This document shows, one piece after another, positions 8,801-33,383 of a DNA stretch of 64,000 nt. Made by a program: the position numbers and the translations under genes. Location of the stretch: IMG/VR virus record IMGVR_UViG_3300043427_001796. The stretch is one strand, 5' to 3'. Every line of letters begins with the position of its first letter. Position 1 is the first letter of the stretch. The DNA comes from a virus. Below the pieces are notes generated by a model that ran no database searches, was not told the origin of the DNA, and was given only the letters and a program-made list of their open reading frames with translations.

Positions 8801-11800
8801 ACTATAACATTTGCATCGGCTCCTCTAGGAGAAAGAATTTCTGAAGGTCAGTCTTTACAATCCGATCCATTTATCGGAAGAGTTTTTGGATACAGAACCG
8901 AAGAAGATAATCAAAAATATTTTAAAAAGATAAAAAATATTTTCCAAAGAAGTGGAATATGGTTGGATGCTGCCAATCAAATACATTTCAATAGAAATTT
9001 TATTGTTGAGGAAACATTTGGATATTTAAATAATAAGTATCCAAATCTTGAATTTAATACAGAAAAGTGCAAAAGAGACATTGGATATATTATAGATTCG
9101 TTTGAACACGATTTAAGATTTGGCGGAAATTTAAAAACTGTCACATCTGGAAATTTTTACTTTAATGCTGCAGAAGAACTTCAATTTATTAATGATGAAT
9201 TAGAAGAAACAAAAGATGCTTATAAGTATGCAGCAAAATTATGTGCCGCAGCTATCAGAAATTGGGATGTGGCATTTATTGATGATCCAAATACATTAGA
9301 TCCTGAATTTGAAGTTATAGTTTCCGCCAATAGTGATGTTATTACTGTTCCATCTACTTTTGGAATTGTTGAGGGAATGTATGTTAGTTCTGGATCTCAA
9401 TTTCCATCTGGAACTAAAGTGATAGAAATTATGAATGATACTAATGTCAGAGTTAGTTCAAATTCCTTTGCTAACATAACAGACGAAGAAGTATTTGTAT
9501 TTGACATTCCCATTGGTCAAGTGGTATTGCCACCTGTAGGAAGCACTGAGGTTGAGTTCAATTATAATGGCGTTATTATACAAACAGACGCAGAACTGAT
9601 AGTTTCTGATGGCATAACGGTTTCGATTACAGCACAAATTGCTAAATTGAGGCAAGTTAGATTTTCATTGAGTAGAATTAATACTGGAAAATATGTAGAC
9701 GCATCGAATTTAATTTATGTCAACCGTGAATACATAATTGACGAAACCATTTCATATATTAATTTAACTTATCCGGGATTTTCATATCCAAGTGAGAAAA
9801 AATGCAGGAGAGATATTGGGCATTTAATTGACGCAGTAATTTATCATCTTAGATATGGTGGCAATAATAGACTAGTTGATTATGCAGAAAAATACTATTT
9901 TGCAAATAAATTAAATTACATTAATGAAGAACTAACTCAAACTGTAGTTGCCTTTGAGTATTCTATTGCCTTAATGTTGGATGCTATAGAGAATCCAGGA
10001 TCTCCTTTCCAGACAGTAAATTATGTTGTGGCATCAGACGATGTAAATCCACTAGATTTATGCATCGAAGTTAAGTCAACTATTAATGCGTATAGAGATC
10101 TTTATACCTTTATTTTAGAAAATGGACCTAATTTAATTGAAAGAAATTTTGGAGAGGTTCAGAAGTCTGGAAATTATACAGAATTGTTAACTTTTTCAAA
10201 TTATAATTTAATCGATGACGAAGAGTTACAATTATCGACTCAAATTAATGGTGTTTGGTTTGCTTCAGAATGTGCAAATGTTATTTCCAGTCTTTACAAT
10301 TTACAGCAATCTTTAGATCAAATTTTAACTTCTGGAGTTGATTCTGTAGATATCTCTGGTCCAGATTATTTTAACGGTGAAACAAAGCAGTTTGAATTAT
10401 ATACAGATTCAAATGCTATACTAAAAACAGATCCAGACGAAAATTTATTAATTTTCATAAATGGAGTTTTACAAAGAACGACATCTTATAAAATTTTAAG
10501 ATCGGAAAATCCACAACAAACTGATATTATTGAATTTACTGAGGCACCAAGATGGGATCAAAATGAAGCACAATTATTATTGAACCAGGGGACTGCAGTT
10601 GATTATTTTTATGGGTTCTCAATTGGAAATTATCAAAGAAGAACCATAGATAAAACTTATTTTAAATATGAATCTAGTTATAGAATTGTTTCCGAAAATG
10701 GATATTCTATTGATCCAATATTTGATTCTAGATTCCATTTAGTTTTCGTTGATGGAGTTTTGCAAAGAAACAAAATTGATTATAATATCGATCAAACTAG
10801 AATAATATTTAAAGAGAAATTAAATTACTATACTCCAGCAACTGGAGAAAACTTACTTTCAAATGTTGACATCATTTCTTTCTCTGGTGAAAAAAATAAA
10901 GATACTTTTATAGGATTTGATTTTCAACCAGGATCTTATTCATTAACAGCAACATTTGATGTTTATGATGACGATAATTCACAAGATAACATTTACGAAA
11001 TTATTACCCAGTGGAATGCTCCTTCTAGGTCTTATCCTATAGACATTATTGACGAATATGGTCCTGTTGGACGAGTATTGAATTATGTTCAAGTAAATTC
11101 TCCTTACTCAGGCGTAAGATTTACAATCATTACCGATGTAATTAGAGAAGTTATACAAGAATCAATAACATTACGTAAAGATTTGCCTTATGTAAACGAC
11201 ATTACGCTATCAATTGCTGCTCCTTTAATAATAAGTGGAAATTTTGTAGTTCCTGGACCTGGAGAATATATTGTTGGCGCAATAAATGTAACATCAGGGT
11301 CTACCGTGACTGTTCCTGAAGATACAACTCTTATCTCTATATCTAATATCACAGATGTAAATTATGAGACAAACAATGATGGAGAAAAAATTCTTAGAAG
11401 AGCAAACGCTGTTCATATTCATGATGATAGAAGAATCGCAAATAAAAACTGGAGAATTCTTAACAAATTAACAGCTAATATATTGGAAGGTGATAAGATA
11501 AAAGTTGATGGTGAAGAAGAATACAGAGATGTATTAAAATTACCTGACATAGTAAAAACTACTCAAAATAATTTATATACGCCAGTATCCAAAAAAACAT
11601 ATGGTAATATTATAACTTCTGTATCAGATAAGAAGCCTAAAGGTAGTGGTCTTAGAATTAACCCCATATTGGATTCGCAAGGAAGAATTGTTTCTTTAGA
11701 TTATGGAAAAGATGACTACATAAGATCAAAATTATTAAATCTTCCATCCAGAAAAATTGGACTATATCCAAAAGAAATTTATGTAGACTTTTTATCTGCA

Positions 11801-13801
11801 GATGGAAACGGAGGCGGAGCTTTTGCAAAGGCTTTCATTCTGAATAACGAAATTATAAGTGTTGAGATCGTTAGTAGTGGATTTGGGTATACAAGTCCAC
11901 CGATACCTTATGTTTCTAGAGGATATGATATTATCAAATCTCATAGAAATGCTTCATCTACATTTAAAAAGGAAAGGAATATTATAATTCCATTTACTTT
12001 GAGTGTAGATAAACAAATTGAGGTTATTGATCCAAGCCTAATCTTCAACGCTCCTTCTTTCCTTTCTGTTGGTTTGCCAGAAGATATTCTGGAATATACC
12101 ACTACATTAGGATTTGAAGTATCGACAAGAACTGCTGGTGAACTTACTATAATTGCAATTCCTCAAGAACTTGTTAAGACATATCCAGATTATGTTGTAT
12201 CATTTGATCCTTCAGTATTAGTTAATGAGACTTTATGGACTTTACCATCTGAATATAGTGTTTCTATTGGAGCATCACAATCTACCAATTCTGAAGTAAC
12301 ATACACTACAGAATTTTCTGTTTCTATTGGCGAATCTCTAAGATTCCCAGAAAATATCAATCAATTGGCAACACTTGTCAATATTGATTTCCTCGACACA
12401 GATACGGTGTTGTATGTTACATCAACATCCGGTTTTGATGATTTTGGTTATCTGCAAGTAGGAACAGAAGTTGTCAAATATACTGATAAGCAAGCTGATA
12501 GATTCTTTATTACGGAAAGGGGAGTATTTGGAACATCCACACCTGCAATTCATCCAATTGGAACTTTTGTATCCACGTTCCTACCAAATATAAACGCCAA
12601 TAGTGCAACGTTTAATTATATTGAAGTAGATGATATTTTTGATACCCCTATTCATGCTGGGACAGAAATTTACAGTATTGCCCAAACAAATATAGCACAA
12701 AATGTTGATTTTGTTACTGCGGATGATACAGTAATTAATTATTATCTACAACCAGAAATTTATATTCAAACTAATAGATTTGAATCTGAATTAACAATAA
12801 ATTACATCTCTCAGATTCCAATCACAGATTTAACAATCCTAGTTGAAAATGCTGAGGTTTCTCTGTTTACATCTACAGAATCTATAGAGGATGTAGTTAT
12901 ACTGAATGCATCTATGTCGAATTTTGCCGACACATCTGTAAATATAACGACACAAGCATTTATTGAATACACTACTGCAAATATAGATTCCTATGATCAA
13001 ATAACAAATACTATACAATCTTACGAAATATTTGATGTCGTAGATACAACGCCAGCAGAATTTGCAATACTCTTCAACACAGAATCTGATCAAAATCTTT
13101 CCATTGCTAATGTAAACCGTGAAACACAATCTCAAATTGTATTCAATGGAAATATTACCCTATCAAATATCAGTGACCAATTATCATTATTCTTTGAAAC
13201 TCCATCTTCTATAGAGCAACTGTCTGCTAATATAATAGAAAGTGATAGTGAGATTTTACAAATATTTGATCAACCAGTAAATAGTGAAATTAATGTAAGC
13301 GAGATAATCCTCGGTAGTGTTGATGTCATTTCACAAATTATATTTACCCCATTTGACATTGAAATAAATCCAGGAAGTTCCTTAAATATTGTTGATAGGG
13401 AAATTTCCGAACAACTTACAAATAGGTCATATGAATATGGAGAGATACTAAATGAAGTTGAAATTATTTCTAAACTAGATATTAATATAGAATATGGTAA
13501 CATTGAGAGTATTATTGACGTAATTAATGTTGTAGATAATTCTTCAATTAATGAATTTACTGCTGTTATTAATGTAGGAAATAATTTAAATATTATTCAG
13601 CAAGAAATTCGTAAGCAACCCGAAGATTTACTTCCAGAATACGGAAATATAAATGATACAGTTGAAATTACTAGTATACTAGATATTAATAGAGAATATG
13701 GAAATATTGAGAGCAATATGAATATTACCACTAGACTTGATCGTGCTGCCATTGATGAATTTAATGAGACTATTAATGTAGGAGATATCGAGACAAACTA
13801 A
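2813..13801 (+). CDS. g7: Giant baseplate wedge initiator gp7-like protein (3662 aa, multi-module)
   Basis: Position between g6 and g8; QLPEFI..FLEKYY, IKNITDFYRSKGS, DSYFYQDYSYVIRS..VHPAGF motifs; YHYH-like domain; helical CxRD repeats. Confidence 0.85.
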   Translation: MTIKLSSLVRRQLPEFISTHYSTFASFLEKYYESLEITGQPLDILSNIANYYDINFYEKNLLQKGTNLSSFVSVNDDEIELDDAIAFPEEYGYVKIDNEICFYTKKEGNTLTGVYRGISASTKLGDLYNKSEFVSSNSENHAVGTYVQNISNLFLFAILKSFEAQYLSSIPEKYLNEKIDKRTLIKNITDFYRSKGSEKSIQFIFNSLVSTDPSDKATIRRPSDLTLRSSDSNWITSYRIKIDVISGNPKNLIGKVLEQSDPYAYAVIESVDVSNKFTDLIIDPTSIVSEFKYYGYTELLSPISSLDQQNFKIEVVSTSAWKSADKSLYIGNEEFDIVEKNVNQFTIKSRSGTSSFSPGSIVYLQKPYEVNGVKFNITGSIYNLRPKTKNPYSVKGDPILQSKFAKSSIDPIVYDASSSSYRWIENQNRERPVIPTLSNLQNQLSSVNANVSAILDDETYFYICSSGYPSYPILADTMLSGNQSLSENNYLKLVRKSPIFSPEIYETNSYDVGIFVDGTLAYSKKSDSFVRTGPIVKTNLINKGFGYKNPPIVLVNGSASKAVAILSGNVVSEIKILTTQSYKKTPSIFITSGRNAALKAVVTNGKLTSIVIENPGEYYVSPPQIIVRDLNGRGKFAECEAVVSNSGKIIGVNIINQGKNYSSNSIVIDVIPQGRDAEAEVEIEKWYYNRYNEIQENNIDYNGGSLVNKKFESKKTYAIVSNPKRLRYSIGDNISSILAEQPTEHSKILGFAYDGYPIYGPYAYQNPLDSESSIVRMNSGYVLNNSRTNGPSIVTHPLGIFDKDYTWVPNLNSGKTFLDQNNGRYCVTPEYPNGTYAYFVTIDSGGEPEYPYIIGKNYYGIPVDSNYNQPITQNDIPSSAKLLDFSSYVNNGINFSALVSEVEKGSIDGFTIDDVNSLHNPGNLLFVNNDGTGGEGFVGSVESVLGENVSYINSKNSVSVLSANSNVYLFDGYNLQEQNTSRVGKIVGDVLFDNTIILEEISDTFDGEEKFDMRDPDTGEIIKILNIFLSKNSTFTANATVSLTDGFNRPDSVVAVGTILESASNQNVLKVLVESGDFSLGIENDALFLQSSVSSDDVGTGIVVLNSLSENIEILNFKYNFAIVKTENPHNLAIGDNVNVSINPDDSSTQKTFFVRKRLFQELKLRDRKIKAKLRDTGIGKFSILSSGTFRSSGTYTTTLGNASVQVVITNNTVSNITILDKGSDFVEDQQLRFDAVLVPDPLDASKQVFLTDFGVYMEKNSVFVCRVDHAGFGIGNTEMKLSIVENISNDDLLSIGKEIVKVLNVDYANKLVSVQRAQNGTIALEHFDGADVSFYDFSYRFNRDSFIPELGTNPTSSPKVYSYDRNSNVLVLYYQYGASLSSTIDISLSNFFKDESFERKDVLISSVGEKKFKLEFSEDNEDNFVVNPNINIQNYYKYIFKTGHPSMYQTYLDFSPSLKYNLITQEKIVGDADPGTNSPNSFVSLKFGFGPALETNTYTSKVLNRFSNYYYFIVASGVTTDNAKLSVVEDPLTGSKNVAYVTSNKFLYELNATPQENGSGEIFYSTSSQNALGLINSLKVNNSGKNYADIPVVIGVEPARSRKALLTAVMNLSGGVDSFIINDSGVGYINPKIILDGDGSQGIFQIALNQNGGVISVKILNGGLGYTKIPKVYVIEDSNKIYLTSKNIGIPKTIEITSSGNNFTTDTTTLPNFTSTYAVLLSDIGDASFSPGRIVNQYDNFNNLIFSGKVSKNGLKRGSNIVRFEQVFGDISKNYPLNGAKIIAILYTNYESEIRSFYDKSGYFGSEKGFTSSVNSNITDSYFYQDYSYVIRSKTPIEIWRSLIKDVVHPAGFQLFGEVVIEANTGIVGQTTQQTLTPIVLTINTGVQSAITINTRTQVTETILSVSDTNVQRGVGRLHFSEFYDDSNIAKEIYLSPNFDGYIDPDNNIQLGTKTFNILDTKSNQPVFPYDENSVIVSLSGVIQEPKVSYTIEGSTITFASAPLGERISEGQSLQSDPFIGRVFGYRTEEDNQKYFKKIKNIFQRSGIWLDAANQIHFNRNFIVEETFGYLNNKYPNLEFNTEKCKRDIGYIIDSFEHDLRFGGNLKTVTSGNFYFNAAEELQFINDELEETKDAYKYAAKLCAAAIRNWDVAFIDDPNTLDPEFEVIVSANSDVITVPSTFGIVEGMYVSSGSQFPSGTKVIEIMNDTNVRVSSNSFANITDEEVFVFDIPIGQVVLPPVGSTEVEFNYNGVIIQTDAELIVSDGITVSITAQIAKLRQVRFSLSRINTGKYVDASNLIYVNREYIIDETISYINLTYPGFSYPSEKKCRRDIGHLIDAVIYHLRYGGNNRLVDYAEKYYFANKLNYINEELTQTVVAFEYSIALMLDAIENPGSPFQTVNYVVASDDVNPLDLCIEVKSTINAYRDLYTFILENGPNLIERNFGEVQKSGNYTELLTFSNYNLIDDEELQLSTQINGVWFASECANVISSLYNLQQSLDQILTSGVDSVDISGPDYFNGETKQFELYTDSNAILKTDPDENLLIFINGVLQRTTSYKILRSENPQQTDIIEFTEAPRWDQNEAQLLLNQGTAVDYFYGFSIGNYQRRTIDKTYFKYESSYRIVSENGYSIDPIFDSRFHLVFVDGVLQRNKIDYNIDQTRIIFKEKLNYYTPATGENLLSNVDIISFSGEKNKDTFIGFDFQPGSYSLTATFDVYDDDNSQDNIYEIITQWNAPSRSYPIDIIDEYGPVGRVLNYVQVNSPYSGVRFTIITDVIREVIQESITLRKDLPYVNDITLSIAAPLIISGNFVVPGPGEYIVGAINVTSGSTVTVPEDTTLISISNITDVNYETNNDGEKILRRANAVHIHDDRRIANKNWRILNKLTANILEGDKIKVDGEEEYRDVLKLPDIVKTTQNNLYTPVSKKTYGNIITSVSDKKPKGSGLRINPILDSQGRIVSLDYGKDDYIRSKLLNLPSRKIGLYPKEIYVDFLSADGNGGGAFAKAFILNNEIISVEIVSSGFGYTSPPIPYVSRGYDIIKSHRNASSTFKKERNIIIPFTLSVDKQIEVIDPSLIFNAPSFLSVGLPEDILEYTTTLGFEVSTRTAGELTIIAIPQELVKTYPDYVVSFDPSVLVNETLWTLPSEYSVSIGASQSTNSEVTYTTEFSVSIGESLRFPENINQLATLVNIDFLDTDTVLYVTSTSGFDDFGYLQVGTEVVKYTDKQADRFFITERGVFGTSTPAIHPIGTFVSTFLPNINANSATFNYIEVDDIFDTPIHAGTEIYSIAQTNIAQNVDFVTADDTVINYYLQPEIYIQTNRFESELTINYISQIPITDLTILVENAEVSLFTSTESIEDVVILNASMSNFADTSVNITTQAFIEYTTANIDSYDQITNTIQSYEIFDVVDTTPAEFAILFNTESDQNLSIANVNRETQSQIVFNGNITLSNISDQLSLFFETPSSIEQLSANIIESDSEILQIFDQPVNSEINVSEIILGSVDVISQIIFTPFDIEINPGSSLNIVDREISEQLTNRSYEYGEILNEVEIISKLDINIEYGNIESIIDVINVVDNSSINEFTAVINVGNNLNIIQQEIRKQPEDLLPEYGNINDTVEITSILDINREYGNIESNMNITTRLDRAAIDEFNETINVGDIETN

Positions 13802-14385
13802 TGGCATTCTTTCCTCTTTCCAAACCAATACAGGTTTTATTATTTGATGGAACTTTAATTGGAGTAAATAATTTATACTATTATTCTCCAATACTTGATA
13901 CATACACAACTGGACCAAGTATTGGTAATTGGGAATCTTTCGATCTGGAACATAATTGTGAGTCGGGAACAATAAGATTTCAATCCTCAAAAGATATCAA
14001 TTTAGATTCAAATCCTCCATTATTGTATATCTCTCCAGTATCAATATTTGATCAAGATTCAACTTTAACATTAGAAACTTTCTTTTCTAGACCAAAATCT
14101 ATAATAGATATCAAAAATACTAAATTAACTGGCATAGTATTGCCATCAATTAATTTATCTGGTGCCTTATTTGATACATTTACATCACCAACTATATTGA
14201 GAGTTCAAGGATCAAATAATCCTTTACAAAAATTTCCATCATCTGGTAAAATTCTCATAAATAAAGAAGTTATTTCTTACACAGGAAAAACATCAAATAC
14301 TTTGACAGGTGTAATCAGAGCGCAAGATGGAACGGTTTCGACAACTCACGCATCTGGTTCATATCTTAGAACGGTGACTATTTAA
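13801..14385 (+). CDS. Baseplate-associated structural protein (possibly split C-terminal part of gp7)
   Basis: TAATG overlap with g7; ends in FPSSGKILINKEVISYTGKT..LTGVIRAQDGT...H..G module also present in gp7. Confidence 0.7.
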   Translation: MAFFPLSKPIQVLLFDGTLIGVNNLYYYSPILDTYTTGPSIGNWESFDLEHNCESGTIRFQSSKDINLDSNPPLLYISPVSIFDQDSTLTLETFFSRPKSIIDIKNTKLTGIVLPSINLSGALFDTFTSPTILRVQGSNNPLQKFPSSGKILINKEVISYTGKTSNTLTGVIRAQDGTVSTTHASGSYLRTVTI

Positions 14386-14396
14386 ATAAAAACTAT

Positions 14397-14404
14397 TATA
14401 AATA
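14397..14404 (+). promoter_or_regulatory. Late promoter TATAAATA for g8
   Basis: Perfect T4 late consensus, intergenic. Confidence 0.8.
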
Positions 14405-14441
14405 AAAAAAGTTAAACCCCTCCAAACCAACGAGAGACAAA

Positions 14442-16541
14442 ATGGCTGATACTGCTTTAATTACGGATAAGTTTAGAGTTTATAACGCTAAACAATTTCT
14501 AGAATCTTTCGATGAGACAGCATCGACAAACCATTTCTTCTTTGTCGGAAAATCTGCAAATTGGCAGACATTGATTGAATACTATCAATATGACAGTAAT
14601 AATGGTGCTAATGAAGTTACGGTTGGAGATCCTATCAGTATTGAAACTCTGTCTGGATACCCAACAACAACTCATGCAACAGTAACTGCAGTGTTGGACG
14701 GAGCAATTCTGGTGACTGGTTTGGATCCTGCCGCTCTCACAACTCTAAAGTTTGGTTTAAATTTCAGCTGGGATGGTGCTGGTGGTAACGGGGACGCAAA
14801 AATTCTAAAAATTAGACCAGCAACAGAAGACGAACCACTTCGTCCACTCGATAATCTTGAAGAGAAGTATAATTATTATAGAGAGATTATCGCTGCAAAG
14901 AGAATTTATAACGATAAACTTGGAGAAGGAGTAGGAACCTCTCCAGATGGAAGTTTTGTAAGACCTGTTGTTAACAGACTTGATTATGGAAAGAATGCTG
15001 ACATTGGTTTCACAGATCGCGTAGAACCATATGACATGTGGCGTCATAATTACGCCAACACAAACAATTTCAAGAGACTATCACAAGAATCTGGTCTGTG
15101 GCAAGGAACAGCATCAACTTCAAATCTGGAAATGATTGTTAGATGCCCAGATTACTCCGTTTGGATGTGTATTGACAATAATAGACAAGCTAATGGAGAT
15201 GGAGCTACTCCAGACCTCTTTAATGGTCCTTCTACTTCCAGTCCAACACAGCTTCCAGAAGCGGTTGGATATTGTTCTCTAAATGGTGTATATACAACTA
15301 CTAATGGTTATAAGTGGAAGTATCTTTACACTCTATCAATCGAAGAAGTTCTAAGATTCCAATCACAGAAGTTTATTCCTGTGGCACCTTTTGCTGGTGT
15401 TTCTGTTGTTGGACCAGAAGTAGTTACAATTCTTCGTGGTGGAACTGGATATCTTGGTGGCGGAAGTGGCGAACTTTATGCTCCAATCAATGGTGATGGT
15501 CAGATTAGCGATACTGAAATGAAGATCGCTAAACTCACAATTACAAATGGTGTTATTACAAAAGCTCGTGTTCTTACTACTGGTGGGACAACTCCAGAAA
15601 CAACTAAGACACCTACCGAATACTCATTTGCAAAGGTTAAATTAGTTCCAGGTGCTGCTTTAGCAGTTCCAGATGGACAAAAGTATGGTCTATACAAAAA
15701 TGCCACTTTAACAACTCTCGCAGTTTTAAACACTGACGTTCCTGCTAACGTATTAAACAGAGGAGATGTTGAGGTTGTAATTCCACCTCAAGGTGGATAT
15801 GGTGCATCGGGTAATGTTGGAACAGAAGGTTTTGGCAAATTTATTGAGCAACTCAATGCAAAGAGAGTTATGTGCAATATTCGCCTAACCTTTGCTGAAG
15901 GCGCAGGAGATTTCCCTGTAACCAACGACTTTAGAAGAATTGGTCTACTAAGAGATCCTCTTGCTTTTGATGGTGCTGGCGGTGCAGTAATTGATAACAC
16001 AGACGCTCCTGCTTATGATACAGCTCGTCAAACATATGCTTTAGCATTTAATACTGGAGCTGGAAATACCTATGTTGGTAATTTTACAGTTGATGAAACA
16101 ATTACTCAGACACTTACTCTAACTGGTGGACTTAGTGTTCAAGCAAAAGCAATTGTTACAGAATGGATTCCCAATGATGATGCTGATCCAACTGCTGGTG
16201 GTATTTTAAGATATTATCAAGATCCAGCACTTCACTCAGCAACAAATGGAAAGGTATATCCATTCTATACTGGAGCCTCAGGTGCTGTAACTGCAGTTAG
16301 TGGTCTTACTGGATCAACTAGCGGTTCACATGGATCAAATGCTCCTGACTTTGCTACAGGAAATACAGCATACAGCGCAACTGCTTTAGGTTTAACTGTA
16401 GATTCTGTTGCATTAACTGCAAAAGATCTATATCCTGAACTTCAACCATATAGTGGAGAAATCATCTATGTTGAAAATAGAAGATTAATTACTCGCGCTA
16501 TTGACCAAATTGAAGATATTAAACTAGTTATTGAATTCTGA
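14442..16541 (+). CDS. g8: Baseplate wedge subunit gp8
   Basis: ITDKFRVYNAKQF, YKWKYLYTL, NDFRRIGLLRDP, C-terminal SGEIIYVENRR..RAIDQIEDIKLVIEF. Confidence 0.92.
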   Translation: MADTALITDKFRVYNAKQFLESFDETASTNHFFFVGKSANWQTLIEYYQYDSNNGANEVTVGDPISIETLSGYPTTTHATVTAVLDGAILVTGLDPAALTTLKFGLNFSWDGAGGNGDAKILKIRPATEDEPLRPLDNLEEKYNYYREIIAAKRIYNDKLGEGVGTSPDGSFVRPVVNRLDYGKNADIGFTDRVEPYDMWRHNYANTNNFKRLSQESGLWQGTASTSNLEMIVRCPDYSVWMCIDNNRQANGDGATPDLFNGPSTSSPTQLPEAVGYCSLNGVYTTTNGYKWKYLYTLSIEEVLRFQSQKFIPVAPFAGVSVVGPEVVTILRGGTGYLGGGSGELYAPINGDGQISDTEMKIAKLTITNGVITKARVLTTGGTTPETTKTPTEYSFAKVKLVPGAALAVPDGQKYGLYKNATLTTLAVLNTDVPANVLNRGDVEVVIPPQGGYGASGNVGTEGFGKFIEQLNAKRVMCNIRLTFAEGAGDFPVTNDFRRIGLLRDPLAFDGAGGAVIDNTDAPAYDTARQTYALAFNTGAGNTYVGNFTVDETITQTLTLTGGLSVQAKAIVTEWIPNDDADPTAGGILRYYQDPALHSATNGKVYPFYTGASGAVTAVSGLTGSTSGSHGSNAPDFATGNTAYSATALGLTVDSVALTAKDLYPELQPYSGEIIYVENRRLITRAIDQIEDIKLVIEF

Positions 16542-16561
16542 TAATACCCGAATTTCTTGAC

Positions 16562-16569
16562 TATAAATA
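16562..16569 (+). promoter_or_regulatory. Late promoter TATAAATA
   Basis: Perfect consensus, intergenic, flanked by imperfect inverted repeat. Confidence 0.8.
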
Positions 16570-16604
16570 AGGTTAGGAACTTAAGTGCGTAACAACAATT
16601 TAAT

Positions 16605-19600
16605 ATGGCACAAAATACTAACCTTAATGTATCTCCATATTATGACGATTTTGATGGAGATAAAAACTTTTATCGAGTCCTATTTCGTCCAGGAAGACCT
16701 GTTCAAACTAGAGAGTTAACAACTCTCCAAAGTATCTTACAGGATCAAATTGAAAAATATGGGAATTACCAGTTCAAACAAGGGGAGCTGGTAATTCCTG
16801 GCGAGGTTGGTTTAAATACTAGATTAAATTATGTGAAATTGTCTTCAGTTTCTGAAGTTGCTGTAAATGTAAATGGACAAATTGAATTTAAAAAATACGA
16901 TATTAGTGGGTTAGAGGGAGAATTTTTAGTTGGATCAACATCCGGAGTTAGAGCTTTAGTTTTATCCAGCACTAAAGAAACCGATTCTAATTCTGATACT
17001 CTTTTTGTATCTTATGTTTCTAATGGAGATTCAAATACAGAGTCAACTTTCAGACAAGGAGAAACACTAGAAGTTCTAGACGGAGTAAACACTCCAACAT
17101 TAACTGTTGGAACAGATGGTGCAGTCCTACCAAATTTTATAACAATTGAAGATGTAGATACTGGAGAAACTAATGTAGTTCCTAGTCCAGCAATTGGATT
17201 TGCATCTGGTGTTAAAATTGAGGAAGGAGTTTACTTTATTAATGGATTCTTTGTGAGAAATTCTCAGCAGTTAATTATTTTAGATCCATACAATAATAAA
17301 GCATCTGGTAAAATTGCTTTTAATGTATTAGAAACTATAGTTACTCCTGAAGAAGATTCATCTTTATACGATAACTCTCGCGGAACTTCTAATTTTTCTG
17401 CCCCTGGTGGACACAGATTAAAAATAGAATTAATTGCAAAGAAATATTCTTATACTGAAATTTTAGATAAAAACAGTGTAGAATTAATTTCAATCAAAAA
17501 TGGATTAGTTGAGAAAAAAATTAGACAGAAAGAATATAATCTTATCGAAGAGACTCTTGCAAGAAGAACTTACGATGAATCTGGAGATTATGTTGTATCA
17601 GAATTTGGATTTGATATTAGAGAATACTACCAAAAAAATGATAATACTGGACTCTATAAATTAAATTCTAATACAAATTTAGTAAATGGATTAAGTGAAA
17701 CTGAAGCTTCTTCAAAATTAATTGGAACGATTGGATCAGGAAAGGCATATGTCAAGGGATACGAATTAGTAAACAAAGAAACTAAGTATGTAACCATTGA
17801 TAAATCAAGAGATAGTATTACCAGACCTAATGTAACTATAAAAAATTCTGGTTATAGTTCATTTTACATTACAAATTTATATGGTTCCGTTCCTTTAAAT
17901 GCAGAGGGTGTAGAACTTACTGCATATCCAAATGTATACATGTTTGGATCATTAAATGATGGAAATATTGGATTGAATGGATTAGAGAGTGATTATGCAA
18001 ATTCTGTAGATTTGAGAGGTAAATTATTATCACAACAACCAAATAATATTGGACCTGGAGTTAATGCACCAGATTTAGATTTAACTCCAAGTAATATTGG
18101 AGTAAAAACTATTTTAATAAATCCAAGTGTAGATTATTTGACTTATTCATCTACTTATACTCCTCCAGTAGGAAGTTATATTTACATCATCAAATCCGTT
18201 GGATTTGATGAGACTGCACAAGCAAGTAGAACACTTTTAGTAGAAAAGGTAAGAGTCATTTCTTCTGCTTTTGTGCAATCTAAAAAAGTTAATCCATCAG
18301 GAAATTTTAATTATATAGAATTGAAAGTAGTTGGAAAGCGCGATGTAGTTGATTCGTTACTTAAAGAATATGATACTGAAGATCCTAATGTGCAAAGAAG
18401 AATTTTTATTAAAGAAAGTGACGCATTTGATATCAATGACACTTTACCCGGAGACTCAGTAAGAGCAAATTATTATTGGGGAACAATTGTAGATTATACA
18501 GAAACTTATTCACCTTTAATTGGTGTATGCAAACCAAGCAATATATCTTTTGTCGAAATTGGTCAAGGATTCAATCCCCTTAAAGATAAAGTAGCTTCAA
18601 GAGGAATATCTGCATCTGGTGAGGAAATCTATAATTCAATTTATAAGTTTGGATATTTTAATCCGGTATTTTTCACCAAAATAATACTGACTTCAAATTT
18701 TTCAAATGGATTCGATGTTGGTAAGTATATTACTGGTTCTACTAGCGGTGCCTATGGAGTCGTAGAAGGCACTCCAGGTGGTTCATATAGTTCAACTAAC
18801 ACTTTACATATTAAAGTCCAGCAAGGTCAATTTGTAGAGGGAGAGACAATTGTAGATGAAGATGGTAATATTGCGAAAATTGCAAAGAGTAATACTTTAT
18901 CACATTTTGTTGTCCATCAACAAGGATTTAACTACAATGCAAATTCTGTAATTGTAGTGAACGGAACTCAATTTGATAAATCAAAAATTTCTGTAACTAG
19001 AGTATCTGGTGGTAATTCTATTGCTTACGTTAAAATTGAAGATGATATTGTGAGGGATGTCACATATGTAAATCCTCCACAAGTAAGTGTTACTGAGGGA
19101 ACAGGATCATTAATAACTGCTGTATTGTTTAAAAATACGGTTCATACTTACAATGTTTCAGAAGTAAAATCTTTCTATTCTTCTTTTGGATCAGGTTCAG
19201 AAGGTCAAAATATTTTTACAGCGGATGTAGAAGTTTCAAATAATCTTTATTCAAATTTTCAAAATATTACAACTTCAACATTTAGTGGAACAAAAGGTTA
19301 TGATTTCCTGGAAATAAACTCACTATCCGTTGATCTTGGTCAATTACTAAGACAGGGAGATATTGTTCAATATGTTGAAAATTCTGGTAAAGTGAGAAAG
19401 GCAGTTGTCGTTTATGCAACTTCCTCTAATACAAGTGTAAAATCTAGAGTTTATCTTGATGCTACGTTAAGAGATAATGTAACAAATTCAGTGCTTACAA
19501 AAATATATTCCAGTGTTGAAAATCCAAACGCAAGTTCACTTATTTCATCTGGAACCACCGGAATATCCAGTATTGTAAAAGATATTACAGATTCAAAAAT

Positions 19601-24803: not shown

Positions 24804-25003
24804 TGAATAATTATTATAAAGTTCAGGGTCACGAAAACCTTTACCGTGACCCTAATACTGGTGCTATTGTGAGCACAGAAAAACCAAATAGGAACAAGAT
24901 AAAACAGCACTTAGATACAACTTCCACAGACATAAATAGTTTGAAGGAAGAAATAAGAGAACTCAAACTTCTGTTATTGGAGCACATTAAGAAACATGGC
25001 TAA
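24803..25003 (+). CDS. Small conserved structural/accessory protein
   Basis: KVQGHENLYRDPNTGAIV motif plus C-terminal coiled coil; overlaps both neighbours. Confidence 0.8.
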   Translation: MNNYYKVQGHENLYRDPNTGAIVSTEKPNRNKIKQHLDTTSTDINSLKEEIRELKLLLLEHIKKHG

Positions 25004-28000
25004 AAGAGAAGTAAAAAGATCATTTACGTTTGAACAACAACGCCAAGAAATCAATCTCCTAGCAGATGATTTGGGTGATAGAGCGCAACTTGATGCTTTA
25101 TCTACGGATGGTCAAAACTCTCTCGTAGGTGCTATTAATGAAATTATCGATACTCCGGTAGATGATGTTTTTGTCGATGAAATTGGGGTAAGCACACAAG
25201 AGCAAAGAATGATCTTTGCTGATGCTGCTTCATTTAAACCATCGGCTTCTTATGATGGAGCAGCAGGAACTAATCCAGAAAGTTTAGATTACTCAAGAAT
25301 TAAATATGATTACGGTGCTGGAACCGTATCAGATAGATTTACATATAATCCAAATAATAAACTCCTCAGAGTTAATAATCTAAAGGCTGATCTGAGAAAC
25401 AGAAATCAGGATGGGACTCTAAGTTCATTGGGTCAAGAAGTTCTTTCTGTTGGAACAAATGCCGACTCAGTGACAGAATCCGAAACAGCATTATACACTG
25501 GTCGTTTAAGAACAAAGATAACCAATGCTCCTATTGAGATTCAGCAGGACTTAATTAAGTTAGAAGAAAAAGCAAGAATGTCTCTTGCTAACAGTTCGGC
25601 AATTGATCTCACAACAGGAATTGATATTGGTGCTTATGTTAATGTAACTAACAACAAGAAAATTCTCTATGTAAGCGTAGATGATGAGAACGCATCTGAC
25701 TTACCAGAGAATGATGGTAGTAATATCAACAGACCTTTCAAAACAATTGAAAGAGCACTGATTGAGGCAGCAAAAAGAAGTTATGTAGGACCAGGAAAAG
25801 GTATTGAGCAAGGAGAACCCGGAGCTGACTTATTTGAGAATTTCACTATTCTTCTGTTCCCAGGTGAATATATTATTGATAATACTCCTGGAGTTAAGGA
25901 AGATGGAATCACTCCTTATACAGCAGCAGATATTTCAGAAGAGATTAAGAGCAGACCAGGAGAACCATATCACACCACTACTTCATTTGCTAATGAACTA
26001 AAGAAGTTCAATCCAAAAGAAGGTGGTCTGATTGTTCCAAGAGGAACATCTATCGTTGGTCTTGACCTTCGTAAAACTTTGATTCGTCCTAAGTATGTTC
26101 CAGATCCCGCAAATGATGAGGTTGGTAGATCAGCACTGTTTAGACTCACTGGTGCTTGCTATATCTGGCAGTTCACAATTAAAGATAATCAAACAGTTCC
26201 AGAAAGTCACCACAAATTAACTGGATTTGAATATGCTAACTATGAGCAACTTGAGGATTACTACAGAAAGATTGACAAGTATAGCAGAACCGATGAAGGA
26301 GCAGATGTTGGAGATAGATTCTTAGATGCTCAAAATCTGCTACTTGACAACAAGAAATTTATTGCTCAACTTGCTGTAGCAAGAACAGAGATTGCTAGTT
26401 CTGGTTTCAATGGTATTGTCACCAACACTACTGCTGCTGGTGATACTGTTGGTCAGGCATGTGCTGATGACGTTGAGTTACTAATTGAGCAAGTTGCTTA
26501 CAACCTTGCTTATGGTGGAAACGATAGAGTATATGATGCTGCTAAGTTTTATAAAGATAATATTGGAACCACAATTCAAGGCGAAGAAGAATTTTCAATT
26601 TTAGTATTTAATCAAGCAAGAGATATTTCAAATCAAGTTGTTTGTAATGTAACTGTTGATACTAGTGCTTTCTCCAACGGAACATTAAATTATACAGAAC
26701 CTGGAGGATTTAAGACTCAGGTATTTGACTATAATATTCTTCCAGATGCTACTGTAAATCCAGAAGATAATACAGATCCAAACAATTGTGCTAACGTAAG
26801 ATCTTCAATCACTACATTGTGGGAGATTCTTACAGAAACACTTCAGAGCATTATTGATGTTGGGGCAACAAATGCTACAATTGGAACCCCAGCAGTCACT
26901 AGAGCAACTCCAACCGATGCTCAGGATTACATTCAAAGAGTAGAAGAAAACAGAATCGTTGGTTTCGTTCAGAACAAATACCTCTCTGATACCGTTGCAT
27001 CTGCCTCTCCATACGTCTTCAACATCTCTCTGAGATCTGTATGGGGTATGTGTGGTCTGATGTCTGATGGTGCCCAATCCACGGGTCTACGCTCCATGGT
27101 GCTGGCACAATACACTGGCATTTCTTTACAGAGAGACGACAGAGCATTTATCCTAAATGGAGCAACTACAGATCAAGTAGAAGATCCAGATCAAAGACAC
27201 TCGGATTCTCTAGCGGAATACAGAGATGACTGGAGGCACTATCATGTTAAGTCCAGAAATAATTCCTTCCTACAGATCGTGTCTGTGTTTGCTGTGGGTC
27301 AGGCGGATCACTTCGTTGTGGAAACTGGTGGAGACCACTCAATTACCAACTCTAACTCAAACTTCGGTAACTCCTCATTAAGTGCTGTTTCTCACAGAAC
27401 GGAAATATTTAATCAGGATAATGGAGCATATATTGTTGGTATTGTTCCACCAAGAGGATTAAATCCAAATGCTGAGAGTAAGGTTAATATTTACAACATT
27501 GACTTTGGAACTACTCTCAAAAAGTTTAATGCTGCTGAAGTTGACGCTGGAGACACTAAAGGATTTAGAAAAATTTACGTTAAAGTAAATGGACAATCTT
27601 TAATTAAAGAAGCAGATATTCCAGAATATTATTCATTTATTCCGGAAACTACAACAGAACAAGCGGAACTTCTTGTTGATGATGTTAATTATTTGCTAGG
27701 CAAGAGAAGGTATTCAGATACTTATCCAGAAGCAATTTATGCAAGACTTCCAAGAAATTATGCAGACTCCACTCTAGCAACATTTGCTTCTAGATTAAGA
27801 GCTAATGGATATGTTTCTGGTGGAAATTCTGCCAAGTATGATCCAAGACCAACTTATTCGGAAGGTGTCATTACTGCCGATTCAAAATCAACTTCTTCAG
27901 ATCCTGTCCCAGCAGCAGCACAAATTGAAACATCAATTAAAAATTATTATATTTTAAATGATAATAACACGTCAGTAGAAACTCCAGATTTCTTTACATC

Positions 28001-31000: not shown

Positions 31001-33383
31001 TTATTTCTCAAGTGGAACTCTTAAGTTTATTGAGTCTGGACAATTAACACAAACCAGAGCAACATTTGAGTATGCCAAGCATCTTGCCATCTGTGCGATG
31101 CGTAACTGGGATACATTTAGAACAGCATCAAGCACAACTACAAACACAATTACCCTAGCTAATACAGATGGCATTGTTGTTGGTATGAGAGTGTATGAAG
31201 TGGCAACTGCTATCCCAACTGATGCTGCTTCACAAACAACAGCAAATGCTAACCTGACATCAAAAGGATATATTGCTTCAGTAAACAGAACAACTAATGT
31301 AGTTACTGTTTATGCCGGAAGAACTGGAACTACTTCTCCAAACCTAACTGGAAATCTTAAGTATAAATTTGTTCTTGAACAAGGATTGGGAGAAAACTGG
31401 GCATCTCCCGGAACTGCAGTTCCTGTTATTGATACTACAGTTGCTCAAGATTATAACTATGCTGCTGGTGAATGTGCAAATGTTGCTTCAGCAATCAATG
31501 TTCTTTATACAACATTTGATCAGATTATTTCGGCATCATCTGCTACAGCAAATGTTAGTAACGGATCTACGGTTCTGTTTAACTCTTCAACTCTTGCGGA
31601 CAATGATGTGATTAGAGTATTTGGAGCACAGAATGATGCTCTGAATGGAGATCTCATCACAGTGAATGCTGAAGGTGGAACATTATTCTCATATGAATTA
31701 AATGTCCAATTCCAAACTTCTTTTAGTGATAATATTGTTTATTATAAAAACACAAATTCAATTGAATTCAATGAACCAACTAAAGCAACTTATTTCACAG
31801 AAGAAGTTATTTTAGAAGGTCTTGGATACTCACAAAACATTAACTACCTATATCCAGAAATTGATCTTGACAATCCAAAGTGGAATCCAAAACCATCTTT
31901 AACACAATACAGAAAAGATGTAGGAAATACGATCATCAGAAACAATACACTAAACGAGGATGACTATGAAAGAATTAGTCAGTATTCTATTACTGCTGAA
32001 TCCACTAAAGGAATTCTTAATAGTATTTTAACTGGTGGTGTTGGTGCTACAGGATTTAGAAATAGAATTTTTGCTGATATTGATCTGAATGCTGAATTTG
32101 GAGCTGGAGAAACAATTACTGATGAAGTGATGGAAAATCCTTATGTTGATCCAGATCTGAATGAGTATGGTGTCAACACAGCTCCGGTCCTTCAATTTGA
32201 TCAAAACAACGTTCCTCTGTTTACAGATCGTTGTATTATTTTTAATGCCGCAACTCCAATTTCTTTCTATCGCCCATCAATCATTCGTGCTTCTTCACAT
32301 ACTTGGGAATACGTTGGTTTTGGTCCTGGTAACTACTCAACTGGTCTACCTCAGTTCCAAGACATTACATTAACTCAGCAGCAGATTGTTAACTCCCAAA
32401 CAATTGAGAGAGGTGGTGGATTCTGTGCTTCTTCAGGAACAAACTCAGAAGGTGATTTCTATATTGGAAACCAAGTTATTGACGCTAAAGGAAACCAGAG
32501 TAATACTCTAAACTTCCCAAGAGTCAAGACATCTGCTGAAAATAGACTGATTGATTATTCTAATTTAGATTCTCTGGCAGCAAATACATCATCTGCTTCA
32601 TTCAATCCATCTTCTTTTAGTGCTGTTCTAACTGCTTCACTACAAGCAATTCAGGAAGCACAAAGAAATTCGTTCAAATCATCAAATATTGAAACATCTA
32701 TTCTTACAACAGGAACACTGAAGATCAATAACAAAATTAGTATTTCAAATAATGTATTTGAGAACGAAGCAAATTTCCCAGTTGCTAGACAAGATACATA
32801 CGGATTTAGTAGGAGAGCATCTATTAACTGGTTTAATGTGGATCCAACTTCGGAAGAATATCAAGGTTTATCTAATTCCTATATTAGTCCTGTTGATATT
32901 AGTGATTGGGCAAATGCTAACTCACTTGTCCCATCAGTTCCTGTTCCATGGACAACTGTTTACTCAGATCCAACCGTATTCAATGAAGTATCTAATGTGG
33001 GCGAAGTAGATATTAACGCAACTCTCACTAAGTCAGTTAACTTTACTGTTACTGGAATTGATACAACAGATGAGAGATGGTATGATGCTGTGACCGATAC
33101 AATTTCAATTCCTCTAGGAACTCCTGCTGATGATATTAACAACACAAACATCAACAATTATGAGGGTAGAGCTGGACAAATTTATATTAATTTCCCAGCA
33201 GATACAGTAAAAGCATCTTCAATTATTCCTACAAACATCTGGAAACCAGTTGAAAATACTTGGACTGGCGTGAGTCAGGTTGATGGTTCTGCTACTACAT
33301 ACTTACAGGGAAGTAAGTTTGTTGTGAGTTATTACATAACTGGAGGACAAATTATTTACTCAGTAAGCACAGTAGAATCGTAA
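24996..33383 (+). CDS. Giant tail fibre/structural protein (2795 aa)
   Basis: TFEQQRQEIN N-terminus, PFKTIERAL, GGLIVPRGTSIVGLDLRKT..RPKYVP, SPYVFNISLRSVWGMCG, RPSIIRASSHTWEYVGFGPGNYSTGLP motifs typical of cyanomyovirus fibres. Confidence 0.8.
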   Translation: MAKREVKRSFTFEQQRQEINLLADDLGDRAQLDALSTDGQNSLVGAINEIIDTPVDDVFVDEIGVSTQEQRMIFADAASFKPSASYDGAAGTNPESLDYSRIKYDYGAGTVSDRFTYNPNNKLLRVNNLKADLRNRNQDGTLSSLGQEVLSVGTNADSVTESETALYTGRLRTKITNAPIEIQQDLIKLEEKARMSLANSSAIDLTTGIDIGAYVNVTNNKKILYVSVDDENASDLPENDGSNINRPFKTIERALIEAAKRSYVGPGKGIEQGEPGADLFENFTILLFPGEYIIDNTPGVKEDGITPYTAADISEEIKSRPGEPYHTTTSFANELKKFNPKEGGLIVPRGTSIVGLDLRKTLIRPKYVPDPANDEVGRSALFRLTGACYIWQFTIKDNQTVPESHHKLTGFEYANYEQLEDYYRKIDKYSRTDEGADVGDRFLDAQNLLLDNKKFIAQLAVARTEIASSGFNGIVTNTTAAGDTVGQACADDVELLIEQVAYNLAYGGNDRVYDAAKFYKDNIGTTIQGEEEFSILVFNQARDISNQVVCNVTVDTSAFSNGTLNYTEPGGFKTQVFDYNILPDATVNPEDNTDPNNCANVRSSITTLWEILTETLQSIIDVGATNATIGTPAVTRATPTDAQDYIQRVEENRIVGFVQNKYLSDTVASASPYVFNISLRSVWGMCGLMSDGAQSTGLRSMVLAQYTGISLQRDDRAFILNGATTDQVEDPDQRHSDSLAEYRDDWRHYHVKSRNNSFLQIVSVFAVGQADHFVVETGGDHSITNSNSNFGNSSLSAVSHRTEIFNQDNGAYIVGIVPPRGLNPNAESKVNIYNIDFGTTLKKFNAAEVDAGDTKGFRKIYVKVNGQSLIKEADIPEYYSFIPETTTEQAELLVDDVNYLLGKRRYSDTYPEAIYARLPRNYADSTLATFASRLRANGYVSGGNSAKYDPRPTYSEGVITADSKSTSSDPVPAAAQIETSIKNYYILNDNNTSVETPDFFTSADPLASNAKHIGVPTTGGNSTARFKLLTGNNPATQFTIAVLESPIKTVAIQGNAAPTTGTPVVYKGVIGTPTPGTNEVAYTYNRKAFNLGGETVSQGLNATFEITRVNGTVGQQTSGNYVIKVLTSGINYNVGDSFSIPGTSLGGISPDNDLTIHVVAVTNSGEGFKRGNDFRVTFTDSTVPATSKIVRLYIKDATLPQGIFVDTNDLYEFDSLTNANYDIPSGGFDAQYYVGLSSTNSVDPWDFLGKWGVPEQGTYDTVVNTEFSFIRTKGGSGFSAANGFNTITIPGSIFYGTDNVNDLVIKIDAVGGNTVTTKNYNDNGTTPKRRYYGWEFARTVGSEYYGRLVLLVDDERTGGTQIIEGVPSSFAYNNAGTRFTGFGSNQQGYPATATTIGGLNQDRTITTIVNNLNNTFTLTLDNPPGVTRSPFYKGDEIILLNTANIGNTASLDGTYKVVTVTQDAGNDLVTFNVADIDLNAITSWQGTGTARKISEEVTIEVKLSILSVGGNEGEVTAIYPRDWNFTIDGDEDLIPGELSDQNFAVGWDKSGSGFSFDDIFLLNTGAGTSLLPENTITFSAATLEVLPAKTYSPSSIKESGYLPGSSLGVRYLPYDETLSLENNTVTYGAADSTVNESLSLLKRITQRVDSNASAALESSDGFEFNDNIVNTLYMKRIQDTRSSNGNSELLWRLICKLPKDGFNNLKLRAPEEKFVIHLKDPGLGFADETLDFPFVYDHAEIGKLRNVKVISGTTQASRNNATVTISNITSRQYIKPARRGGDGVTYLTYPTYSSTIGAETLAPSGGSFSVKYGPTGIPISATVVSEGKCYNNGDRIILNDGLSGTITLEVTKATTTYPRSFYVQKVEPIVEYEYNVRDGYYLLTVLDGNIHTYYNQQTNTNSEDDKRIVYGKQRLIGFEDLDIPPDGILSEINHRKQDASDLIEKNRLFIQTEANGYLKNAFPGFTNPSENRCKRDVGYLLNALINDLRLGGNNNVINTAQYYFSSGTLKFIESGQLTQTRATFEYAKHLAICAMRNWDTFRTASSTTTNTITLANTDGIVVGMRVYEVATAIPTDAASQTTANANLTSKGYIASVNRTTNVVTVYAGRTGTTSPNLTGNLKYKFVLEQGLGENWASPGTAVPVIDTTVAQDYNYAAGECANVASAINVLYTTFDQIISASSATANVSNGSTVLFNSSTLADNDVIRVFGAQNDALNGDLITVNAEGGTLFSYELNVQFQTSFSDNIVYYKNTNSIEFNEPTKATYFTEEVILEGLGYSQNINYLYPEIDLDNPKWNPKPSLTQYRKDVGNTIIRNNTLNEDDYERISQYSITAESTKGILNSILTGGVGATGFRNRIFADIDLNAEFGAGETITDEVMENPYVDPDLNEYGVNTAPVLQFDQNNVPLFTDRCIIFNAATPISFYRPSIIRASSHTWEYVGFGPGNYSTGLPQFQDITLTQQQIVNSQTIERGGGFCASSGTNSEGDFYIGNQVIDAKGNQSNTLNFPRVKTSAENRLIDYSNLDSLAANTSSASFNPSSFSAVLTASLQAIQEAQRNSFKSSNIETSILTTGTLKINNKISISNNVFENEANFPVARQDTYGFSRRASINWFNVDPTSEEYQGLSNSYISPVDISDWANANSLVPSVPVPWTTVYSDPTVFNEVSNVGEVDINATLTKSVNFTVTGIDTTDERWYDAVTDTISIPLGTPADDINNTNINNYEGRAGQIYINFPADTVKASSIIPTNIWKPVENTWTGVSQVDGSATTYLQGSKFVVSYYITGGQIIYSVSTVES

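Follow-up and report, generated by a model that had tools for sequence, protein, structure and literature searches.

Why would the baseplate and fibre proteins of a virus carry domains that resemble the pigment-binding subunits of a cyanobacterial antenna? The question is raised by a 64,000-nucleotide stretch of viral DNA, IMG/VR record IMGVR_UViG_3300043427_001796 (here called the window), in which a first-pass annotation made from the sequence described four helical domains, two in a gp7-like baseplate wedge protein and two in a fibre-like protein. It took them for truncated phycobiliprotein globin domains that could be chromophorylated. We find that the domains inside both proteins are very probably divergent relatives of the phycobiliprotein globin fold, and below we set out the profile, modelling, conservation and comparative evidence that bears on their origin and on what they might bind.

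Four homologous domains in two giant virion proteins

The four copies, designated A1 and A2 in the gp7-like protein and E1 and E2 in the fibre-like protein, lie in two long open reading frames (ORFs):

2813..13801, + strand: gp7-like baseplate wedge protein, ORF of 3662 amino acids (aa), hosts A1 and A2
8957..9271, + strand: A1 helical core, gp7 residues 2049-2153, CKRD site, core profile 156.3 bits
9689..10003, + strand: A2 helical core, gp7 residues 2293-2397, CRRD site, core profile 165.8 bits
24996..33383, + strand: fibre-like protein, ORF of 2795 aa without a Pfam family, hosts E1 and E2
26316..26657, + strand: E1 helical core, residues 441-554, CADD site, core profile 116.0 bits
30798..31115, + strand: E2 helical core, residues 1935-2040, CKRD site, core profile 161.1 bits

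The four motifs read as the first-pass annotation had quoted them, with cysteine codons at 9068, 9803, 26460 and 30912, and a DA..L..N..I helix stands upstream in all four copies (D, A, N and I invariant), with [YF]P in three. Pairwise blastp comparison of the copies gave E-values of 5e-23 for A1/A2, 3e-23 for A1/E2 and 2e-24 for A2/E2, and of 5e-8 to 1e-3 for the divergent E1 against the others. Judged by these values, the four regions are homologous repeats, not chance look-alikes.

A profile of the four copies matched 1,316 proteins at E<=1e-3, 450 of them at E<=1e-30, in a set of 1.84 billion representative proteins, and a single scan of viral contigs with the 287-aa E2 region returned one locus. 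Many of the matched proteins are giants of up to 6,982 aa with as many as 36 matched stretches each. For the analysis of conservation we used 150 of the listed proteins together with the window's two; these 152 proteins held 1,577 domain matches, of which 891 were near full length. In dense arrays the domain recurs with a period of about 105 residues, which indicates that the core is a self-contained module of that size.

Individual phages showed further arrangements. Protein 214 of S-RSM4 (NC_013085.1 162121-175569) has a nested layout, in which three N-terminal half-cores (869-995) precede a full core (998-1104) and three C-terminal parts (1143-1507), resembling domains inserted into one another's B-E loop. 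Besides gp7, a second giant ORF with three domain copies is present in each of two Prochlorococcus phages, P-HM1 (NC_015280.1, ~82.4-83.6 kb; 3,681 aa) and P-HM2 (GU075905.1, ~82.6-83.8 kb; 3,682 aa). The S-PM2 record AJ630128.1 annotates 16 transfer RNA (tRNA) genes at 168556-173383, inside the coding region of S-PM2p218; this is an open frame of 3,779 aa without stops, and the tRNA coordinates of the record look displaced.

Sequence profiles link the core to phycobiliproteins

Against PF00502, the Pfam family of the phycobiliprotein subunits, the gp7-like protein scored 17.0 bits and A1 alone 18.6 bits (profile positions 18-84), with the cut-off at 22.2 bits, and A2, E1 and E2 taken alone gave no Pfam match to this family. 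PF00502 was listed for 5 of 16 homologs and passed the cut-off in three of them, with 45.9, 46.6 and 26.6 bits summed over copies. Because the window's scores stay under the cut-off, we class the domain as a divergent relative and not as a member of PF00502. Searched alone against the PDB with phmmer, A1 found phycocyanin at E 0.94 and phycoerythrin at E 1.5, neither of which is significant.

Profiles were more sensitive. We built a 54-row profile from the window's four copies and one copy from each of 50 proteins and searched it against 177,635 distinct PDB sequences. The best match was CpcA (E 1.5e-5), and 57 of the 60 rows listed were named phycocyanin, phycoerythrin or allophycocyanin chains, the other three being a 'bacterial fluorescent protein alpha', YvfG and a pilin. 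Another profile, whose 12 rows included eight from proteins absent from the first, reached E 8.2e-5, and 59 of its 60 rows were phycobiliproteins. In the HMMER alignment the conserved Cys, Arg, Asp and GG fall on Cys84, Arg86, Asp87 and Gly102-103 of C-phycocyanin alpha, and in that of the 54-row profile the helix before the Cys site aligns with helix B; the phycocyanin alpha chromophore site to which the first-pass annotation had likened the motifs is found in the alignment to 1jbo_A.

The predicted fold is that of a bilin-binding globin

Modelling of the E2 core by AlphaFold2 (AF2) with the 54-row alignment gave a predicted local distance difference test score (pLDDT) of 90.3 and a predicted template-modelling score (pTM) of 0.82. 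When this model was compared with 350,542 chains by Foldseek, every listed row was a phycobiliprotein or smURFP, with query-normalised template-modelling scores (TM-scores) up to 0.75. A VIA-align search of 48,161 representatives placed bilin-binding globin folds in the top nine rows (Z 11.4 to 9.7), namely allophycocyanin, ApcE, phycoerythrin (root-mean-square deviation (rmsd) 2.0 over 109 residues), photocobilin and phycobilisome chains; colicin S4 (Z 9.3) and heme globin sensors (Z about 8) came next.

A second model covered 253 residues of the E2 region (pLDDT 76.9, pTM 0.78). Here an insert forms strands at model residues 109-194 (pLDDT 58-81, falling below 50 at 197-207), and a helix at 227-246 with pLDDT of about 90 begins at a second Cys. 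With this helix included, the match to phycoerythrin-beta reached Z 14.5 (rmsd 2.4 over 143 residues) and continued up to the chain's final residue; the eight best VIA-align rows were then all phycobiliproteins. This match to the C-terminus of phycoerythrin-beta indicates that the later helix takes the place of helix H and that the insert lies in the G-H loop. Heme globins and globin-coupled sensors, at Z 8.1 and 11.5, ranked under the phycobiliproteins, and neither the Pfam scan of the copies nor the profile searches against the PDB gave a sequence match to heme globins.

According to these models the window copies run from helix B through to helix H, the X-Y hairpin being their one missing element: the structural alignments begin at chain residue 32-34, and a hairpin could not be accommodated in a tandem period of about 105 residues. 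Without it, assembly into (alpha-beta)3 rings is unlikely. The earlier description of the domains as truncated phycobiliprotein globin domains is backed by both the sequence profiles and the predicted fold, and the Foldseek comparison that had been proposed as a check put phycobiliproteins first, a globin-type fold and not another helical bundle, albeit at weak E-values that we return to below.

A second cysteine at the start of a predicted helix H

Each of the two proteins also contains later helices that begin with, or near, a cysteine:

10055..10117, + strand: variant Cys helix in gp7, DLCIEVKSTINAY..., Cys codon 10061, from sequence
10268..10330, + strand: canonical second-Cys helix in gp7, SECANVISSLYNL..., Cys codon 10271, motif match
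26784..26846, + strand: E1 second-Cys helix, NNCANVRSSITTLWEIL, Cys codon 26787, 44 residues past the core
31116..31469, + strand: beta-rich insert of E2 in the predicted G-H loop, AF2 strands
31470..31529, + strand: predicted helix H of E2, GECANVASAINVLY, second Cys at its start (codon 31473), AF2 helix at model residues 227-246

The first-pass annotation had assigned a C..V.S.h helix to all four of these cysteines. Those at 10271, 26787 and 31473 do start the motif CA[ND]V.[ST].I, and the canonical gp7 helix aligns with those of E2 and E1, whereas the helix at 10061 reads CIEVKST, a variant that the motif does not match. The gp7-like protein accordingly has one canonical and one variant helix after its two cores, and from its sequence we infer that the variant would act as helix H. 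Elsewhere in the 152 proteins the motif occurs 53 times outside cores, typically 21-32 residues past a core, and the second Cys is invariant in the 12 rows of a core-plus-helix alignment. It had been equated with the second bilin cysteine (beta-155) of the beta subunits. The position of the residue in the predicted fold agrees with this, while the HMMER alignments do not reach helix H and so leave that equivalence to the model. The models point to window copies of a two-cysteine type, with the equivalent of Cys84 in helix E and the other Cys starting helix H.

The putative chromophore-site residues are conserved together

The 891 near-full-length copies share about 30% identity, and Cys is conserved in 96% of them, Arg(+2) in 94%, Asp(+3) in 99%, Asp(+14) in 98% and Tyr(+30) in 98%. 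The equivalents of the Cys84/Arg86/Asp87 triad are complete in A1, A2 and E2. At +14, A2 has His and not Asp. E1 keeps only the Cys and Asp of the triad; with Asp in place of Arg at +2 and Asn at +14 it belongs to a C-x-D-D subtype, in which Asn or another residue stands at +14 and which accounts for most of the Arg-less copies. Also of this subtype are S-PM2 p218 1323-1436, Syn1_032 1537-1650 and S-RSM4_214 1527-1639, and it possibly constitutes a second functional class.

Exactly one Cys is present in 743 of the 891 copies (83%), so a disulfide cannot explain the conservation of this residue in the family, and we ruled it out as the family-wide cause. Asp(+3) is found in all 859 copies with the Cys versus 21 of the 32 without it, and Arg(+2) in 822 of 859 versus 17 of 32; Asp(+14) is retained in all 32 copies that lost the Cys, indicating that it at least has a role independent of the Cys. 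On these sequences the Cys/Arg/Asp triad appears to decay as a unit, with the reservation that Fisher values for the co-decay overstate its significance because the copies are not independent. At profile position 85, where helix G starts and Thr is the usual residue, eight copies have a Cys, and seven of these eight lack the canonical one. The Cys85 copies belong to an 'RDTG' subtype (P0036, P0052, P0062, P0080, P0092, P0110, P0142) and, being all of one subtype, may reflect one to three events.

Among isolates the domain follows the cyanobacterial host

Three tblastn queries were run against 50,697 phage records. The E2 core matched 294 records, of which 293 are named as cyanophages and one as 'Marine'. 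With a metagenomic eight-copy protein, 242 of 251 matched records were cyanophage-named and nine were 'Marine virus', although some of these matches ran through its non-globin C-terminus. The third query came from contig G002:C300 (72.8 kb), which is binned with a Crocinitomicaceae metagenome-assembled genome, has baseplate genes of the T4 type and encodes the domain in two giant ORFs. The globin segment of C300 matched 132 records, all cyanophage-named, even at E<=0.01. Matches of the whole C300 fibre in phages of Pseudomonas, Gordonia and Pelagibacter and in other phages vanished when the globin segment was used alone and must therefore stem from the non-globin ends of the fibre.

The 54-row profile at E<=1 found nothing in four phages of heterotrophs, Phosso, Vibrio phage 2.275.O, PA5oct and the pelagiphage Mosig, the last of which NCBI places in Kyanoviridae; the same profile matched 14 of 17 cyanomyoviruses. 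Absence from Mosig and presence in these 14 suggest that the occurrence of the domain in isolates is tied to a cyanobacterial host, not to membership of a virus family. The first-pass annotation had named an equal abundance in phages of non-phototrophs as an outcome that would speak against its reading, and in the isolate sets searched here, by tblastn and in the four heterotroph phages, the domain is not distributed in that way.

A one-peptide-pattern scan (8-row sub-alignment) of 185,579 species genomes gave at least five loci, all in metagenome bins. The bin G003, labelled Rhodobacteraceae bacterium Water_Bin34, has 33 domain matches and nine T4 major capsid matches on nine contigs, seven at >=347 bits; with at least seven full-length T4-type capsid genes on separate contigs, it is evidently polluted with phage contigs. 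For C300, a Pfam scan of 31 ORFs detected no host-indicating gene, the contig being a structural module, and megablast of its fibre region against phages gave no match.

The domain co-occurs with cpeT

Association with cpeT was examined in 17 complete T4-like cyanomyovirus genomes, picked regardless of the domain; IMG/VR was excluded from this test, 2 of its 80 capsid-scan loci being on contigs longer than 120 kb. Fourteen genomes carry the domain, in 3-12 copies each, and P-SSM2, S-SM2 and S-SSM7 have none. Of the 14 domain-positive genomes, 12 yielded CpeT (PF06206) at default stringency; in the remaining two, S-ShM2 and P-SSM7, a divergent CpeT ORF of 149 or 145 aa occupies the place in the genome where cpeT usually lies. 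No CpeT candidate was found in the three domain-less genomes. The co-occurrence that the first-pass annotation had proposed to test is present: 14 genomes have both, three have neither and none is mixed (17/17 concordant; Fisher p=0.0015 without correction for phylogeny). When CpeT is called more strictly, the counts for both, domain only, CpeT only and neither are 12/2/0/3 (p=0.015). Our count is close to that of Sullivan et al., who report cpeT in 12 of 16 genomes and call the role of the phage gene unresolved (PMC3037559); a review treats it as a host-directed gene (PMC2984593).

S-PM2, Syn1 and S-RSM4, which represent three genera, share a gene order: a giant 'short tail fiber' gene (cluster GC734) is preceded at a distance of 0.7-1.5 kb by cpeT, and both genes are read from the same strand. 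The GC734 giants of these phages contain 4-7 cores (C.RD or C.DD) and 2-5 second-Cys helices. A gene for a 2OG-Fe(II) (2-oxoglutarate/iron) oxygenase (GC104) stands between cpeT and the giant fibre gene in S-PM2 (locus 3808-4389) and Syn1 (locus 2073-2645); the oxygenase might modify the domain-bearing fibre protein. T-type lyases act on Cys-153 of beta subunits (PMC10452541), which is the position that the second Cys appears to occupy in the predicted fold.

Light-dependent adsorption and a proposed function

Adsorption data exist for five phages with known domain content. According to PMC6628666, P-HM1 and P-HM2 do not adsorb in the dark, P-SSM2 does so at a reduced level and P-SSP7 does so as well; the same text, citing Jia et al. 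2010, describes the light-dependent adsorption of S-PM2 as independent of host photosynthesis, and it proposes light-sensitive receptors and/or tail fibres as the cause. Dim red light had no effect on adsorption according to the preprint of that paper (bioRxiv 10.1101/167650). We count five domain copies each in P-HM1 and P-HM2, ten in S-PM2 and none in P-SSM2 or P-SSP7, and domain presence therefore fits light-dependent adsorption in all five phages.

We propose that the domains would receive a covalently bound bilin in the host cytoplasm during infection. The T-type lyase encoded by the phage itself, CpeT, would act on the helix-H Cys, and the helix-E Cys would be loaded autocatalytically or by a host lyase, so that some tens of chromophores would sit on the baseplate and fibres of the assembled virion. 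More speculatively, the adsorption apparatus would respond to light through these chromophores, and this would explain how adsorption can depend on light and yet not on host photosynthesis. At a minimum, the bilin might act as a folding staple of the helical domain. Taking together the selection pattern of the triad, the restriction to cyanobacterial hosts, and the co-occurrence and synteny with cpeT, we put the chances that the domains bind bilin at about even. A part for the domain in light-gated adsorption is a tentative suggestion, and so is the fuller picture of pigmented cyanomyovirus particles in which CpeT-attached bilins would serve as the light sensor for adsorption of P-HM1, P-HM2 and S-PM2.

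Evidence against the proposal and alternative explanations

A number of observations weigh against bilin binding and the steps that lead to it. Both profile alignments to phycobiliproteins end near profile position 60 (~2-60), covering helices B to E and leaving F, G and H unreached. Foldseek E-values were weak for both models (0.03-0.24, none <=0.001), and Z-scores below about 13 can, by the VIA-align documentation, be commonplace among helical bundles. E2 and A1 have a third Cys, in helix G, and a disulfide between the helix-G and helix-H cysteines may form in the multi-Cys copies of the window. Arrays of up to 36 copies resemble rod-building modules. The bilin synthesis genes ho1, pebS and pcyA, to which the first-pass annotation had extended the expected link, were rejected as partners of the domain on five phages: P-SSM2 has a bilin reductase and a heme oxygenase without the domain, and S-PM2 has the domain without either enzyme. 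The CpeT calls in S-ShM2 and P-SSM7 depend on summing scores, to 23.0 and 28.6 bits with a cut-off of 21, the three double-negative genomes may represent one or two loss events, and the tests of co-occurrence, synteny and phenotype are all small and uncorrected for shared ancestry; the five phages with adsorption data include a sister pair, P-HM1 and P-HM2, and a podovirus. Lastly, the capsid of C300 is closest to those of jumbo phages of Sinorhizobium, Vibrio, Pseudomonas and Yersinia, the best match being the Sinorhizobium jumbo phage Phosso (73.6%), and yet this contig encodes a 2,556-aa fibre with six copies, five of them with C.RD. C300 is the key case for or against the link to cyanobacterial hosts.

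The main competing explanation is a pigment-free structural module: the fold was captured once and now stiffens or lengthens baseplate and fibre proteins, with the conserved Cys, Arg, Asp, Asp(+14) and Tyr(+30) serving folding or inter-domain packing. Tandem copies at a regular period in proteins of such length, the assignment of the regions by PHROGs to tail-fibre and virion structural families, the retention of Asp(+14) in every Cys-less copy, the occurrence on a contig with a heterotroph-type capsid and a phycobiliprotein sequence match limited to two helices are all as expected of such a module. It fits less well with best-conserved positions that are polar or reactive and not core hydrophobics, with a lone Cys kept at 96% (unusual in a virion protein, and without a partner Cys in 83% of copies) or with the decay of Arg and Asp upon Cys loss, and it leaves the co-occurrence and synteny with cpeT and the absence from Mosig unexplained. 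We consider it a possible but not a probable account.

Less likely again, and in our view improbable, is that the domain holds something other than a bilin, be it another tetrapyrrole, a metal, a host-surface molecule or a covalent bond between Cys and receptor, the link to cpeT then being coincidental. The proteins are located at the site of receptor contact, conserved Asp(+14), Tyr(+30), Asn(+20) and Gln/Glu(+42) lie outside the HMMER alignments to phycobiliproteins, and heme-binding globin sensors are structural neighbours (Z 8-11.5). The triad that is kept, however, is that of the phycobiliprotein chromophore site residue for residue, and phycobiliproteins outrank heme globins in both models; heme binding found no positive support, no search for a proximal His having been made. 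Convergence, finally, would make the domain a non-homologous helical bundle that AlphaFold pulled to the phycobiliprotein fold by way of a local motif. Only about 55 positions align significantly, and the weak Foldseek E-values and middling Z-scores, frequent among helical bundles, suit this idea too. But two largely different profiles return almost only phycobiliproteins from the 177,635 PDB sequences at E of about 1e-5 to 1e-4, PF00502 reaches 46 bits in multi-copy homologs, and a distant C-terminal helix lifts the structural match to Z 14.5, which an artefact of the motif would not predict. We regard convergence as very improbable.

If the proposal that the domains carry bilin and sense light is true, the virion would contain the first photoreceptor known to be built into one, phage cpeT would gain its substrate, and light would act on the free virus particle, with relevance to the diel infection of the most abundant marine phototrophs; the core of about 105 residues would be a candidate minimal bilin-binding scaffold. 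Two puzzles of cyanophage biology are of long standing: cpeT is present in cyanomyoviruses, including those of Prochlorococcus, a host without phycobilisomes, and the adsorption of some cyanophages needs light yet not host photosynthesis. A phycobiliprotein-type domain in the adsorption apparatus that retains the attachment residues and co-occurs with cpeT ties the two together and makes both testable. Should the bilin reading be false, a host antenna fold would still have been recruited as a building block of phage tails.

Genomic setting of the window

By its gene content the window reads as the structural module of a T4-like cyanomyovirus without a close isolate relative. Pfam identified gp25, gp6, gp8, neck, gp15, sheath, tube and gp23, and further both terminase subunits, portal, prohead protease and scaffold. 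No bilin enzyme was found in the Pfam scan of 30 ORFs of >=70 aa, three short reverse-strand ORFs being left out, which agrees with the first-pass annotation. The gp7-like ORF is flanked by gp6-like (2148..2807) and gp8-like (14442..16541) ORFs, and its Pfam matches are YHYH (PF14240) at 98.2 bits, located at 5033-5341 (residues 741-843), and Baseplate_wedge at 16.5 bits, under the cut-off; the gp7-like homolog P0067 has YHYH at 81.6 bits. The domain regions of the fibre-like protein match the PHROGs families phrog_4527 'short tail fiber' and phrog_5342 'tail fiber'.

Two more giant ORFs adjoin the fibre gene. One, of 2,732 aa at 16605-24803 (+), between gp8 and the fibre, matches DUF4815 (150.8 bits in three stretches), and no phycobiliprotein-type core was found in it. 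The other, of 2,154 aa at 33390-39854 (+), lies directly 3' of the fibre and has no Pfam family and no core copy.

Comparison with known systems

We found no paper on phycobiliprotein-like domains in phage virion proteins in open PubMed Central or bioRxiv. With the phycobiliprotein subunits (CpcA/CpcB, CpeA/CpeB and allophycocyanin; PF00502) the domain shares globin-like helices B to H, the triad and the GG at 102-103, and the second Cys probably corresponds, by its position in the predicted fold, to Cys153/155 at the start of helix H in the beta subunits. There are also differences. Phycobiliproteins are free subunits of 160-180 aa, whereas the domain is embedded in virion proteins of 2,800-3,700 aa; a short helix and a beta hairpin replace the F'-F region, a beta-rich stretch of about 120 residues is inserted between G and H in E2, the X-Y hairpin is absent, and Asp(+14) and Tyr(+30) are near-invariant residues of its own.

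In its place between gp6 and gp8 the host protein of A1 and A2 corresponds to T4 gp7, and the Baseplate_wedge score rises from 16.5 bits here to 23.2 bits in the homolog P0067. T4 gp7, however, is about one third as long as the 3,662-aa ORF of the window, which in addition holds globin-type domains.

Photocobilins of non-cyanobacterial bacteria (8j2y, 8j2w) likewise have phycobiliprotein-like globin domains outside phycobilisomes and inside a larger protein. They match the two E2 models at Z 11.0/8.6 and 10.9/10.6 with 7-8% identity and no significant sequence match, and they are cellular photoreceptors, unlike the virion parts described here. Another parallel is ApcE (4xxi), the second-best structural match (Z 11.3 and 14.0), a multidomain protein of very large size that contains a phycobiliprotein-type domain broken, as here, by a loop insertion. 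Its bilin becomes attached with no lyase involved, which could be a precedent for the helix-E Cys of the phage domain. ApcE belongs to the antenna in the cytoplasm and has one such domain, while the window has two per virion protein and its relatives up to 36.

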